A DNA stretch of 64,000 bases, from sequence record OP778610, one strand, 5' to 3'. Source of the DNA: Escherichia phage W70. The notes below the pieces were generated by a model. It did not search any database. It worked only from the letters and a program-made list of their open reading frames with translations, and was not told the origin of the DNA. Within the stretch, counting starts at the first letter, position 1. Each line of letters begins with the position of its first letter. Position numbers and translations under genes: made by a program. Below are positions 42,673 to 48,540 of the stretch, piece by piece.

Positions 42673-42727
42673 GACAGAAAGAAAGAAGTAAATTAAATTA
42701 TACCACGTAACGCCGCAATCGTGCGGC
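42673..42727 (+). promoter_or_regulatory. promoter plus 5' hairpin cassette
   Basis: TTGACA, 17-bp spacer, TAAATT; hairpin gccgca-atcg-tgcggc. Confidence 0.5.
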
Positions 42728-42754
42728 AATAAAAACTGATAGGAATTGAACAAA

Positions 42755-42967
42755 ATGGCTAAAATCATCATTAAAAAATCCCGTGTATCTTCTGTTGCTC
42801 GCGTCGAAATGGTAAACACTATGCCAGGTTACCGGACTCGCGAGGAAGCCCGAAGCGTTGCAAAACAGATTAAAGCCCGTGGCTTAACTGTAAGTGCACC
42901 GACCAAAACACAAGAAGGATGGAAGGTATCTATTAAATCCGGTACACTGTCGATCAATAAACACTAA
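42755..42967 (+). CDS. hypothetical basic protein
   Basis: ATG at 42755 preferred over TTG at 42746. Confidence 0.45.
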   Translation: MAKIIIKKSRVSSVARVEMVNTMPGYRTREEARSVAKQIKARGLTVSAPTKTQEGWKVSIKSGTLSINKH

Positions 42968-43030
42968 TAGCCAAAACATTAACGGGGCAACTTTGCCCCT
43001 CACTAAATAACATTATCCAGGAGTATTAAC

Positions 43031-43189
43031 ATGACTAGCCAAAACACTAACATTGAAAAAATCAACATTACTAAAGAGCGTAAAGCATGGAATGAAACAT
43101 TAAATCTGAAAGGTAAGAAGCTGAATAAAACTAAACGCGATCGCAGTACAAAGCGGGCCTTTTGTGAATTTACAGCGGATCAAGAATGA
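43031..43189 (+). CDS. small ORF (52 aa)
   Basis: AGGAG RBS 7 nt upstream; overlaps next start; below ORF-track cutoff. Confidence 0.35.
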   Translation: MTSQNTNIEKINITKERKAWNETLNLKGKKLNKTKRDRSTKRAFCEFTADQE

Positions 43190-43485
43190 TGATTAAAGTT
43201 ATTGCACTTACTGCCTTATTGTGTATACCATTTTTGGCGCACGGTACTAAGTTTTACGGTGCTAACTTGATAGATTGTAAAGCTCATATGCTGGACCATG
43301 AAACAGGCAACAAATTTGTTAAGCCTTTCCAGATCAATCCGGCGGTGTTTACTGACGGTGTTTTATATCAGGAAGGTAAAGCCAGTACGCTGATAATCCA
43401 TTACGATCCAGCGACAAAGAAAGGTAGTTTATCAATCCAGGTTGAAGGCGCGGAAGAGTTTTCAGGTAAAATAATCTGCAATTAA
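43186..43485 (+). CDS. secreted or periplasmic protein
   Basis: N-terminal signal-like MIKVIALTALLCIPFLAHG. Confidence 0.5.
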   Translation: MMIKVIALTALLCIPFLAHGTKFYGANLIDCKAHMLDHETGNKFVKPFQINPAVFTDGVLYQEGKASTLIIHYDPATKKGSLSIQVEGAEEFSGKIICN

Positions 43486-43545
43486 TATGTTAAGGCCCGC
43501 CATTGTGCGGGCCTTTCTTTTATGAAAATAATTTTGAAAATGTTG

Positions 43546-43614
43546 TTGACAGCACCGATTAAAAGCGTATGATGTATTACATCAGGACGGGGAACCAAAC
43601 AAGTAACTCCCCGT
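43546..43614 (+). promoter_or_regulatory. promoter plus hairpin with no downstream ORF
   Basis: TTGACA then -10-like, hairpin acgggga...tccccgt; no start codon before next promoter. Confidence 0.35.
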
Positions 43615-43663
43615 TAAGTAGTCCAGGAGTAAGACATACGAAAACCTCCCCTGATAAAATAGT

Positions 43664-43722
43664 TTGACAATAGTTTTTAGTACTGTATAATACATTACAT
43701 CAAGGGGAGAATAGTTCTCCCC
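43664..43722 (+). promoter_or_regulatory. promoter plus 5' hairpin cassette
   Basis: TTGACA, 16 bp, TATAAT, hairpin GGGGAGAA-tag-TTCTCCCC. Confidence 0.6.
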
Positions 43723-43742
43723 ACATCAAAGGAATCAAAACA

Positions 43743-43970
43743 ATGGCTATCGTAATCACTCGCGTATCTGGTACAGTTGGCAATGCGGCAGTAGTAGCGG
43801 TTATCACTAATAAGAAAGGTGCGGAACTACATTTTGCAATGTATAACTGGTCAGTTGATGAGTTTGGTCAGTACGCTAGTGTAGAATACATTGAAACCTA
43901 TCAAGTGCCGTCGATTAGTTTAACTGATTTGGGCGTTGAGCGTATCCTTTGCCTGGATGAATTAAATTAA
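43743..43970 (+). CDS. hypothetical protein
   Basis: 75-aa ORF after cassette. Confidence 0.5.
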   Translation: MAIVITRVSGTVGNAAVVAVITNKKGAELHFAMYNWSVDEFGQYASVEYIETYQVPSISLTDLGVERILCLDELN

Positions 43971-43977
43971 AAAAGTA

Positions 43978-44038
43978 CTTGCAAAGTAAAACGAATAACG
44001 TATAATACATTACATCAAGGGGAGAAATGATTCTCCCC
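43978..44038 (+). promoter_or_regulatory. promoter plus 5' hairpin cassette
   Basis: TTGCAA, 17 bp, TATAAT, hairpin GGGGAGAA-atga-TTCTCCCC. Confidence 0.55.
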
Positions 44039-44055
44039 ACTAAGAGGAAACTAAG

Positions 44056-44196
44056 ATGAAAACTTGCCAGTGTGGTAAAAAGTCTATTGCTGGTCTGCGT
44101 CGCGGTGTTGCTTTATGCCAGTATCATTACAATAGTCAAGTATGGGGTAAAACGTGGGCTGACCAGGTTGAAGCAGCAAAGAAAGCAAAAAAGTAA
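44056..44196 (+). CDS. small Cys-containing ORF (46 aa)
   Basis: Follows cassette; CQCG...CQYH; below track cutoff. Confidence 0.35.
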   Translation: MKTCQCGKKSIAGLRRGVALCQYHYNSQVWGKTWADQVEAAKKAKK

Positions 44197-44253
44197 TTGA
44201 CAGCAGGAAGAAAAAGAGTAAACTGTATTACGTAGGGCGGCAATAGCGCCGCC
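44197..44253 (+). promoter_or_regulatory. promoter plus 5' hairpin cassette
   Basis: TTGACA, TAAACT, hairpin GGGCGGC-aata-GCGCCGCC. Confidence 0.5.
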
Positions 44254-46779: not shown

Positions 46780-46966
46780 CATATGACTAATACAAACCGA
46801 CAAAAAATCATCAAAACTAAAAAACTTGATTTCAATACTTATCAAGAATGCAAGAAGAAAGTAAAAGATAAGCGAGAGAACAAGCGGCACGAATGGATAA
46901 GCAATACAATCGATCTTTAATATCAACCTAAGCCCACTATGTGGGCTTTTCTTATGGAGAACAGAC

Positions 46967-47194
46967 ATGATTAATATTCTTTCACTTACAGAAGTGATCC
47001 GCTTCCTCAAAAACAACGCCCTGGGAACGTCTATAACGTATCTAATCCCGCAAGGTAAGGATTATGCCAGCGTTACACGTTCAATCACTGCTACGGCTTC
47101 CAGAGAAGAAATAAAGGTCAGCGTAAGCCAATTGTTGATTGTTGATCCGTCATCTTGCGAGACTATCCAGGCAGTAAAGATAATTAGAAAATAA
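46967..47194 (+). CDS. hypothetical protein
   Basis: Terminator-like hairpin agcccac-tatg-tgggct precedes. Confidence 0.4.
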   Translation: MINILSLTEVIRFLKNNALGTSITYLIPQGKDYASVTRSITATASREEIKVSVSQLLIVDPSSCETIQAVKIIRK

Positions 47195-47279
47195 TTTAAA
47201 AAACTTCTTGCATCCATTATTGAGAAGATGTACATTAGTTTCATCAAGACGAGATGATGACAATCAAAAGGTGATTACT

Positions 47280-47573
47280 ATGTTATACGAAGTTTTTGCG
47301 GGATTTTGTTTTTATGGTGCTGCCGCCGTTCGCCAATGTGATGATTATGTAGTTGAGTCATTCGATGATCCTTTGGCGTGTGAGATTGTTACTACGGCGT
47401 ATGAGCAAGATCGCCGTTGGATTAATCCGGCCTGTATCGCATCGCCTGAGGTTGAACCTATGCCGGAAGGTGAGGAATTAACAGAGGAAGACTTGCAAGA
47501 AGTAAAAGAAGTTATGAGCTACATGATTGATAATCTGGACGCTGAAAACTTACAACGGGCTTTGCAAAAATAA
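47280..47573 (+). CDS. hypothetical acidic protein
   Basis: ATG at 47280 within listed ORF 47208-47573. Confidence 0.4.
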   Translation: MLYEVFAGFCFYGAAAVRQCDDYVVESFDDPLACEIVTTAYEQDRRWINPACIASPEVEPMPEGEELTEEDLQEVKEVMSYMIDNLDAENLQRALQK

Positions 47574-47586
47574 TTTGAAAAAGTAG

Positions 47587-47643
47587 TTGACTCAAAGAAG
47601 CAAAACAAGTAAATTATTCACATCAGGCGGGGAATGGCCCCGC
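47587..47643 (+). promoter_or_regulatory. promoter plus 5' hairpin cassette
   Basis: AAAAGTAGTTGACT, 17 bp, TAAATT, hairpin GGCGGGGAATGGCCCCGC; near-duplicate of 45470 cassette. Confidence 0.6.
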
Positions 47644-47659
47644 TAAACAAAAAGAGATT

Positions 47660-48040
47660 ATGAAAATGGCTAAAAATACTAACGTTTGTGATTACGCTAA
47701 CCTGGTTACTCTGAATGCAGATTCTAAAATTAAACTAAGCGAGGTTGAAGCTATTCATATTCTGGCCCGTCGTTGGTTCCAACAATCATACGGCAATACT
47801 TATTTCTCTTTAAGTGTAGACGTGGAGATCGCTGGTAAATTGGTTCAAGTGGTTAGCGTGCCGTTCCAATATGGTTATGGTGATCATTTCGATACCGTGG
47901 CACTAGAAGAATTTAGCAAGGTTATCAACATGGAAGGCAAGGAGTTTTCACGCGGTAGCTATCTATCCCGTTTTTGCCGTGACAACAATATCCCTGTTTA
48001 TTCGAACGCCGTTGATGTTAAACGCAAAAAAGATATGTAA
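47660..48040 (+). CDS. hypothetical protein
   Basis: 126-aa ORF. Confidence 0.5.
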   Translation: MKMAKNTNVCDYANLVTLNADSKIKLSEVEAIHILARRWFQQSYGNTYFSLSVDVEIAGKLVQVVSVPFQYGYGDHFDTVALEEFSKVINMEGKEFSRGSYLSRFCRDNNIPVYSNAVDVKRKKDM

Positions 48041-48046
48041 TTATTA

Positions 48047-48106
48047 TTGACAGTACAAAGAAAACGAGTAAACTGTATTACATAGAAAGCGGGAACACTT
48101 CCCGCT
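48047..48106 (+). promoter_or_regulatory. promoter plus 5' hairpin cassette
   Basis: TTGACA, 16 bp, TAAACT, hairpin AGCGGGAA-cac-TTCCCGCT. Confidence 0.55.
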
Positions 48107-48127
48107 TATATTCTAGGAGTAAGAGAA

Positions 48128-48481
48128 ATGATCGAACAAATCAAAACTACGACGGCTAATGTAACGGGAACGGTAGCACACTTTACTAGTGATGAATCGC
48201 GGGGCGTTCCCTATTGTGCTGTACATGTAAACACTGAGGGTAACTACTGGTTTACGGTTTACGGATCATATTCATTTGGACGGCCAGGGCATCAAAAAAT
48301 TCTGGATAAAGTACAACCAACGGGTAAAAATATTACCGCTGAGATGTTTAATAAATCACTTGCAAAGTTAAAAGCACTGAAAGATTTTGGCTTTAAAGAT
48401 CTAGTTATCAAACGTGATGAAAAATTCCGCTTCCGTAATGATCTGGCAAATCGCTACTATGAAATCTATGAAGCACTTTAA
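48128..48481 (+). CDS. hypothetical protein
   Basis: 117-aa ORF. Confidence 0.5.
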   Translation: MIEQIKTTTANVTGTVAHFTSDESRGVPYCAVHVNTEGNYWFTVYGSYSFGRPGHQKILDKVQPTGKNITAEMFNKSLAKLKALKDFGFKDLVIKRDEKFRFRNDLANRYYEIYEAL

Positions 48482-48484
48482 TAA

Positions 48485-48508
48485 AAAGGGCCGCAATAGC
48501 GGCCTTTT
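48485..48508 (+). terminator. intrinsic terminator
   Basis: gggccgc-aata-gcggcc then TTTTCT. Confidence 0.6.
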
Positions 48509-48511
48509 CTA

Positions 48512-48540
48512 TTGACACCTGCTAACCATTCCTTTAATAT
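48512..48540 (+). promoter_or_regulatory. sigma70-like promoter
   Basis: TTGACA, 17 bp, TAATAT. Confidence 0.5.

Follow-up and report, generated by a model that had tools for sequence, protein, structure and literature searches.

A PeSL-like cassette of promoter and leader hairpin repeated through the small-gene array of an rV5-like coliphage

The closest described relatives of the element considered here are the PeSLs (promoter-early stem-loops), cassettes known from the T4-type phages RB49/phi1, T4/PST and KVP40/nt-1 (Arbiol et al., 2010, PMC2839356; Comeau et al., 2014, PMC4122927). Each combines a near-consensus sigma-70 promoter with A/T-rich upstream DNA, a G..C stem-loop, a Shine-Dalgarno sequence (SD) and an ATG, and PeSLs are found in hyperplastic regions; promoter activity, modular shuffling and mini-circles have all been described for them (PMC2839356; PMC4122927). 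A similarly built element recurs in front of small genes in a 64,000-nucleotide stretch of Escherichia phage W70 (sequence record OP778610; hereafter the window). Judged by identity, the window belongs to an rV5-like coliphage (Vequintavirinae), as the region that holds the elements is 92–94% identical to Escherichia phages A7_1, A5-4, A73 and UPEC06, which are rV5-like myoviruses of the Vequintavirinae with genomes of ~142–145 kb. We lean, without great confidence, towards reading the element as a modular early-gene cassette of the PeSL kind, in which a hairpin in the leader would act as stabiliser or insulator and in which the repetition of the cassette would drive the shuffling of gene modules.

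Nine units of a sigma-70-type promoter followed by a stem-loop lie on the plus strand between 42.6 and 48.2 kb, eight of them preceding a small open reading frame (ORF) and one without an ORF. An earlier note on this DNA had counted at least nine genes with this architecture; nine is correct for the cassettes, but the genes number eight, the ninth cassette being an orphan. The layout runs from a -35 box of TTGAC(A/G/T) or TTGCAA through a spacer of 16–17 nt and a -10 box of the form TAnnnT to a GC-rich stem-loop 10–13 nt further on (the 6–12 nt given for this gap in the earlier note did not hold on measurement), and a further 15–27 nt separate the end of the stem from the ATG, which the orphan does not have. 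The promoters match the consensus at 9–12 of 12 positions (n=9), and the hairpins have free energies of -10.8 to -14.3 kcal/mol. Cassette 1 (42662..42757) has an A-rich extension, its -35 box at 42671–42676, its -10 box at 42694–42699, the hairpin GCCGCA/TGCGGC at 42712–42727 and an ATG at 42755. Cassette 2, the orphan (43546..43662), has its boxes at 43546–43551 and 43568–43573 and a long-loop hairpin, ACGGGGA/TCCCCGT, at 43587–43614. Almost abutting it is cassette 3 (43664..43745), with a -35 box at 43664–43669, the -10 box TATAAT at 43686–43691, the hairpin GGGGAGAA/TTCTCCCC at 43704–43722 and an ATG at 43743. Cassette 4 (43971..44058) carries the TTGCAA variant at 43979–43984, a -10 box at 44001–44006, a hairpin at 44019–44038 and an ATG at 44056, and cassette 5 (44189..44277) has its boxes at 44197–44202 and 44219–44224, the hairpin GGCGGC/GCCGCC at 44236–44253 and an ATG at 44275. 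Further along are cassette 6 (45461..45551; -35 box 45470–45475, -10 box 45493–45498, hairpin 45509–45527, ATG 45549) and cassette 7 (45888..45983; TTGACG 45897–45902, -10 box 45920–45925, hairpin GGGGGAA/TTCCCCC 45938–45956, ATG 45981). Cassette 8 (47578..47668) has TTGACT at 47587–47592, a -10 box at 47610–47615, the hairpin GGCGGGG/CCCCGCT at 47626–47644 and an ATG at 47660 or 47666, and cassette 9 (48046..48130) completes the set with boxes at 48047–48052 and 48069–48074, the hairpin AAGCGGGAA/TTCCCGCTT at 48087–48107 and an ATG at 48128.

The cassettes form sub-families of direct repeats, 40–91 nt long and 68–93% identical, of which cassettes 6 and 8 make up a 91-nt pair at 87% identity. 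An upstream extension shared by several copies had already been pointed out, and is borne out by the A-rich sequence AAAAGTANTTGMM, present six times in the window (five in the region) against 0.06 expected. At the other end, ORFs of the array often begin with ATGGCTAA/ATGGCTAT (43743, 44275, 44574, 44880, 47666 and many further loci), and the conservation of the cassette therefore reaches the first two or three codons.

This arrangement is not a product of chance. A mechanical scan of the whole 64 kb returned nine sites with a promoter and a perfect hairpin on the plus strand, all within 42671–48754, and one on the minus strand; these nine sites are not identical with the nine cassettes above, since the scan omits the orphan at 43546 and includes 48754, which is not counted as a cassette. 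Between 42600 and 48600 the plus strand holds 14 promoter-like sites, eight with a hairpin at 8–15 nt, and the corresponding figures for the minus strand are two and none. Three hundred dinucleotide-preserving shuffles of 42600–48600 contained a mean of 0.10 cassettes and a maximum of two, against the eight observed, so that the repeated promoter and hairpin architecture reported earlier is real.

The cassette also occurs in the orthologous arrays of A7_1, A73, A5-4, UPEC06 and LTH01, in three IMG/VR contigs of 97–153 kb (9–13 copies per 20 kb, on the sense strand) and in the 350-kb Asteriusvirus jumbo phages G17 and 121Q, and the orphan unit together with common gene modules is found in the Justusliebigvirus phages muut and EmilieFrey/Bas61 as well. 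The IMG/VR search, made with ORF 47660–48040, returned three close contigs only, and the annotated phage collection was more informative. Pooling of the arrays gave 78 unique promoter-linked hairpins on the sense strand versus six on the antisense strand. The stem-loops have 5–11 bp, mostly 6–9, and loops mostly of 3–5 nt. Around them, the initial transcribed sequence is kept as GTTTTACATCR or GTATCACATAG (generalised, ..TYACATMR), downstream of the stem the leader is rich in A and C and includes a purine-rich Shine-Dalgarno sequence, and many of the pooled ORFs likewise begin with ATGGCTAA.

The position of the hairpin is held closely. In 74 of 78 pooled hairpins the stem starts 10–14 nt after the -10 box. 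With the start site taken as the best-placed purine 6–9 nt after the -10 box, a guess from promoter geometry, the stem would begin at about +4 to +6 of the predicted transcript, with 3–5 unpaired nucleotides between predicted start and stem in 113 of 147 unique units and 0–2 in 27 of them. The distance from the end of the stem to the AUG in the pooled units has a median of 20 nt (interquartile range 18–21). By this reckoning the hairpin is boxed in between the predicted start site and the ribosome site.

Several results bear on whether the hairpin is kept as an RNA structure. There are 21 distinct 6-nt stem tops among the cassettes, and the true pairs of arms are 90% Watson-Crick over seven positions, compared with 58% (maximum 66%) in 2000 permutations of the 3' arms; the set permuted was chosen for having hairpins, and cleaner evidence comes from the contrasts of sense with antisense and with shuffled sequence. 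This loop-anchored analysis with permuted partners replaced a MAFFT and RNAalifold alignment of 36 paralogous cassettes, in which the stems lay out of register and just four pairs were recovered. A two-sided compensatory change separates the cassette 9 stem of the window (AAGCGGGAA/TTCCCGCTT) from that of LTH01 (AGGCGGGAA/TTCCCGCCT), the basal pair of the stem of the 47587 type occurs as G:U, A:U and G:C between orthologues, and the 45897 stem of UPEC06 has lost one nucleotide from each arm. The notion that the G-rich arm always lies 5', and that this orientation is informative, was rejected, because the arms of a perfect palindrome read alike on either strand; only wobble pairs, loops and flanks are therefore informative about the strand. 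Among internal mismatches found with a strand-symmetric repeat finder, G:U outnumbers A:C by 18 to 8 (one-sided p=0.04), a modest asymmetry among copies that are not independent. The sense strand folds better than the antisense strand in 58 of 75 unique hairpins, with a mean difference of -0.96 kcal/mol (Wilcoxon p=3e-5). There is thus modest but consistent support for selection acting on the sense transcript.

These data can be set against the idea that the hairpin has no function of its own and is what is left of an ancestral terminator, a hitch-hiker duplicated together with the promoter while the cassettes multiplied. The cassettes are clearly paralogous repeats spread by recombination, as such a history would have it, but promoter spacers have diverged beyond recognition where the stem has been kept through compensatory changes, and its position has been held to within a few nucleotides in three phage lineages; we regard this idea as scarcely credible. 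It is also unlikely, though less so, that the hairpin is an RNA operator bound by a phage-encoded or host protein, comparable to boxB/N antitermination or to a RegA-type global repressor of translation, by which the whole early set is switched on or off together. With such a tag on dozens of early mRNAs, shut-off would be economical, the position is fixed relative to both start site and AUG, and the loops are biased to (A)URG, with TAG, TGG, ATGG, ATAG and AATGG accounting for 28 of 80. Against such an operator stand the diversity of the stem tops and the more than 40 loop sequences, CAC, ACATC and GTGTT among them. Moreover, the cassettes have no boxA-like partner motif, no candidate binding protein was identified, and an E-value-threshold Rfam scan of 42000–49500 and 48400–50700 gave no match at E<=1 besides a chance Trp-leader.

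Whether the hairpin terminates transcription can be judged from what follows the stem. Fewer than five T are present in the 8 nt after the stem in 97 of 101 promoter-linked hairpins. Sorted by context, the unique GC-rich hairpins comprise 97 with an upstream promoter, no T-tract and a downstream SD-ATG, 29 with an SD-ATG and no promoter, and 22 with a T-tract, just one of which has an upstream promoter. The true terminators of the window (43492, 46930 and 48485) carry T-tracts and sit upstream of promoters. In addition, genes behind the 29 promoter-less hairpins need read-through, and a terminator placed after its own start would kill its own transcript; both points, like the sequence context, argue against the cassette hairpin being an intrinsic terminator. 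The role proposed for the T4-type PeSLs is that of an attenuator or terminator that stops or damps transcription arriving from upstream cassettes, isolating each module transcriptionally, and that polymerase newly started at the cassette's own promoter for the most part escapes. It is the role given to the stem-loop in the PeSL papers, the G17 annotation lists a number of these hairpins as ARNold terminators, and tandem strong promoters would otherwise pile up read-through. The PeSL paper reports that lacZ expression fell as far with one RB49 stem-loop lacking an obvious U-tract as with rrnB T1, and a missing T-tract therefore does not rigorously exclude attenuation. Nevertheless, we hold an attenuator to be rather improbable here: the T-tract hairpins form a separate class upstream of promoters, a stem-loop downstream of its own start would end the cassette's own transcripts too, and the promoter-less units of hairpin and ribosome-binding site (RBS) leave their genes dependent on the very read-through that would be damped.

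The cassettes are also where related genomes part company. When homology breaks were mapped by BLASTN of 41–52 kb against relatives, eight of nine junction clusters fell in intergenic cassettes, intergenic DNA making up 24% of the region. One example involves two plus-strand promoters without a hairpin, TTGACT-17-CATAAT at 44513..44576 (ATG 44574) and TTGACA-17-CATAAT at 44806..44882 (ATG 44880), which are the left and right copies of a direct repeat flanking ORF 44574–44786. Phage A73 is without this ORF and has a single promoter, the left half of which corresponds to the window's 44513 and the right half to 44806, with the crossover inside CATAATAACTTTTAT, a sequence common to both. The chimeric cassette of the window at 43664 stands in place of a pair of cassettes, with a pair of genes, in A7_1 and A5-4. 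A hairpin and RBS without a promoter at 45139..45179 (plus strand; GGCGGGGA/TCCCGCC at 45139–45158, ATG 45177) forms the left edge of a single-gene module that includes ORF 45177–45461; the module is missing at the syntenic site in all five relatives, is found elsewhere in A7_1 and A5-4 and also in G17, and its hairpin has a promoter in the 121Q copy. The 44806 promoter and leader match one gene of G17, and the ORF body (44880–45119) matches another, the two matches overlapping at the ATGGCTAA start; at least one crossover (44864–44887) lies in the conserved first codons. The modules stand in a shuffled order when compared with G17, 121Q, muut, EmilieFrey and the IMG/VR contigs. From these alignments, exchange appears to proceed by ordinary homologous recombination in repeats of 20–90 nt.

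A different reading of the junctions is that the inverted repeat is itself a recombination signal in DNA, extruded as a hairpin or cruciform or bound as a duplex, and cut or bound by a structure-specific or sequence-specific phage enzyme that would promote cassette exchange, its place in the transcript being incidental. The PeSL authors raised this idea for stems of the type GGGG..CCCC, perfect palindromes are strand-symmetric, and some junctions do lie at hairpins (that at 43592 within the stem of the orphan, that at 45139 on the edge of a hairpin). The documented crossovers, however, are in the promoter, the -10 box or the initial transcribed sequence, or at the ATG, and not in stems; neither of the two repeats behind the A73 recombination carries a hairpin; and the sense-strand wobble and folding bias and the fixed distance to the AUG would be left unexplained. 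No recombinase was identified, and a signal of this kind seems very unlikely. At 48375/48376, within ORF 48128–48481, all relatives lose collinearity. The window is without ~6.8 kb of the small-gene array of A73 (A73 78694 to 85464), and the junction creates an in-frame chimeric ORF, 48128–48481, with an N-terminus that matches phrog_9227 and a C-terminus that matches phrog_12277.

The orphan cassette merits separate consideration. The earlier note had remarked on a cassette (43546–43614) with no ORF behind it; an ORF is indeed lacking, but the unit proves to be conserved non-coding DNA rather than a private oddity. Its transcribed part, ~43582–43662, is present in 44 phage records from three lineages at 85–100% identity, never annotated as a gene, and its conservation exceeds that of the neighbouring genes; the jumbo phages have two paralogous copies each. 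In comparison with one of the 121Q copies the promoter spacer is unrelated and the transcribed block is ~97% identical up to the next -35 box, the coding modules on either side being 78–88% identical, and across lineages the transcribed part is 93–97% identical where promoter spacer and neighbouring genes are far more diverged. A start codon is absent from every copy, the sequence at that place being AGGAG-N7-ATA or ACA. The predicted fold pairs a 5' AUCAGG with a 3' CCUGAU around two hairpins, with a free energy of -19 to -21 kcal/mol and z-scores of -2.2 to -2.9; among eight copies there are one-sided changes from G:C to G:U only, and no compensatory pairs. In UPEC06 and LTH01 a different non-coding filler stands behind the orphan promoter. 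An origin as a plain deletion scar was rejected, given the conservation across lineages. Taken together, these features make the orphan a non-coding unit of ~85 nt (43576–43662) with its own predicted promoter, and a candidate small RNA.

The PeSL-kind cassette that we favour would work as follows. An A-rich, UP-like extension and a near-consensus sigma-70 promoter would be read by unmodified host RNA polymerase, presumably early in infection, and would be followed in order by the initial transcribed sequence, the GC-rich stem-loop, an A/C-rich spacer, the Shine-Dalgarno sequence and the ATG. The transcribed stem-loop would then serve as a structural element of the leader or, between cistrons, of a longer transcript. 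On the cassette's own transcript it may hinder attack and scanning by RNase E that depend on the 5' end; on read-through transcripts from upstream promoters it may be a barrier to 3' exonucleases; and it may keep the ribosome site free of pairing with upstream sequence, giving the same expression of a module in any context. Because the cassettes are repeats of 40–100 nt, homologous recombination between them would delete, insert and re-order single-gene modules, and modules would have moved in this way between Vequintavirinae, Justusliebigvirus and Asteriusvirus jumbo phages. An RNase III processing site was also considered as a role for the hairpin and was dropped, the stems being just 5–11 bp.

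Besides the modest wobble asymmetry and the RB49 lacZ result already mentioned, several points weigh against this account. Intergenic breakpoints are expected for any viable change of gene content, and part of the intergenic bias of the junctions will reflect selection against broken genes, so that enrichment at cassettes alone does not prove causation; one junction, that at 48375, is intragenic. [quoted passage not shown] The hairpins also occur without promoters, which means that a function at the primary 5' end could account for no more than part of what they do. Finally, a survey of the literature on rV5-like and 121Q-like phages turned up no data on transcription starts, half-lives or timing. 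The interpretation offered in the earlier note is thus partly supported; the parallel with PeSLs, the cassettes as breakpoints of gene shuffling and the conserved orphan unit were absent from it.

A bolder proposal, which we put forward tentatively and consider possible rather than probable, is that the cassette is the connector of an integrase-less exchange network linking at least three groups of virulent coliphages that are otherwise unrelated, the 140-kb Vequintavirinae, the 146-kb Justusliebigvirus and the 350-kb Asteriusvirus phages, with the hairpin as a portable insulator through which any captured ORF could be expressed immediately and the orphan as an early regulatory small RNA. If true, the PeSL idea would not be a peculiarity of T4-type phages but a general way for large virulent phages to package accessory early genes as self-sufficient modules open to swapping, and the fixed placement in the leader would be a clean, testable case for stem-loop action at the level of RNA. 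It would also account for the movement of very small ORFs of unknown function, many of them probably host-takeover or anti-defence genes, among phage families with no core genes in common. Compact natural parts that combine promoter, insulator and RBS, and a candidate phage small RNA, would be among the practical returns.

The remaining features of the locus fit around the cassettes. The array of small ORFs sits in a plus-strand block at 32.5–50.5 kb, and the scanned ORFs of the region have matches only to PHROGs or Pfam DUFs of unknown function, a composition that, by analogy, is typical of early or host-takeover arrays. Like the promoters at 44513 and 44806, that at 48512 has no hairpin or a weak one. 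A second hairpin and RBS without a promoter, GGGGCA/TGCCCC at 42984–42999, lies at 42984..43033 on the plus strand (ATG 43031). At 46404..46470 (plus strand) a promoter-like site, TTGACT-17-TAGTAT, has its -10 box within the loop of the hairpin TTGCCCCT/AGGGGCAA at 46417–46442, ahead of an ATG at 46468; the site (46404–46442) thus has the layout of an RB49-type PeSL among cassettes of the leader-hairpin type. Of the terminators, that at 43492..43523 (plus strand) consists of a 9-bp stem followed by TCTTTTAT, upstream of promoter 43546; that at 46930..46956 (plus strand) is a stem followed by TTCTTATG; and the hairpin AAAGGGCCGC/GCGGCCTTTT at 48485..48508, just upstream of promoter 48512, resembles a bidirectional terminator. 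The Rfam Trp_leader match (43437–43520) overlaps the terminator at 43492 and is sub-threshold, at 28 bits against a gathering score of 41, chance being the most likely explanation.

Upstream of the early array, a non-coding stretch at ~40.85–41.55 kb contains four iteron-like direct repeats, GAGAACTTGAGAGGTTTTTCA, at 41135–41313 with a spacing of 32–64 nt, and a second pair of repeats lies nearby at 40859 and 40923; the repeats at 41135–41313 may be a replication origin or a protein-binding array. Downstream, ~1.1 kb at 48820–49950 is without a convincing ORF and contains C-rich tracts and two or three internal direct repeats (CCACAAAGARAG.., ATTGCCAGAGTATGG); this stretch is conserved in relatives, whose annotations place several hypothetical proteins in it, and Rfam gave no match in it. 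It is followed by ORF 49955–50443, a free-standing HNH_3 endonuclease (Pfam E=5.5e-13) that is missing from all five close relatives, in which homology ends at ~49860; this is probably a homing endonuclease that was inserted recently.

It remains to compare the cassette with systems already described. A literature search for a prior description in rV5-like or 121Q-like phages found nothing, and the composite of promoter and hairpin is not described in the genome papers of rV5, CBB and Sharanji; those of rV5 and CBB list RpoD-like promoters and terminators separately, and that of Sharanji leaves promoters unmentioned. In having a GC-rich stem of 5–11 bp, a short loop and an intergenic position the hairpin resembles an intrinsic terminator, but it lacks the U-tract in 97 of 101 cases, lies downstream and not upstream of promoters, and coexists with genuine T-tract terminators in the same array. 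The stem-loops of the ompA 5' untranslated region (UTR) and the T7 gene 10 leader are 5'-proximal stabilisers of mRNA. The cassette resembles these in having a stable hairpin close to the predicted 5' end of its mRNA and a strong ribosome site behind it; the differences are that the predicted 3–5 unpaired 5' nucleotides exceed what blocks RppH and RNase E, and that the same hairpins are here also found between genes without a promoter. The nut boxB of lambda and the put sites of HK022 are promoter-proximal antitermination RNAs, and with them the cassette shares a small RNA hairpin just downstream of early promoters. However, it has no conserved loop or boxA, its hairpins come singly with each tiny gene and not with each operon, and neither an N-like protein nor an Rfam match was found.

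Integron attC sites likewise offer single-gene modules, bounded by imperfect inverted repeats and shuffled between genomes. In contrast to these, each cassette here brings its own promoter and the crossovers look homologous; no integrase turned up among the scanned ORFs of the region, in which no test dedicated to attC sites or integrases was made. In N4-type hairpin promoters, which serve a phage-encoded single-subunit virion RNA polymerase, the hairpin is formed in DNA upstream of the start, whereas here it lies downstream of a canonical sigma-70 promoter.

The closest parallel is with the PeSLs. Both have a strong sigma-70-like promoter with A/T-rich upstream DNA, a G..C stem-loop, an SD and an ATG, both are intergenic and clustered before small ORFs of unknown function in variable regions, and in both, where related phages differ by an indel or a replacement, the junctions lie within the motifs and chimeric cassettes result. 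The RB49 upstream sequence (aaaaaagttgTTGACA) and leader (..ggagaatcaaaATG) resemble those of the cassettes, and all the PeSL hallmarks that can be read from sequence are found here, namely the promoter, the stem-loop, the SD with a small ORF in a variable region, and the junctions. The differences are equally clear. When RB49 was searched with the cassette scanner, the stem-loop was found to begin upstream of the point where the -10 box ends, by 24 or 16 nt, which puts it within the spacer or across the box itself, and only one of 16 promoters had a stem-loop after the -10 box; the RB49 stem-loop is thus mostly outside its own transcript, but the hairpin described here always lies in the predicted transcribed leader, starting 10–14 nt after the -10 box. 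The lineages are different as well (Vequintavirinae, Justusliebigvirus and Asteriusvirus, with no nucleotide similarity to RB49), and the modules are common to unrelated phage families. The description that suits the element best is therefore that of a PeSL-like cassette, presumably for early genes, whose hairpin has a fixed place in the leader, the concept being known and the phage groups and the fixed layout being new.

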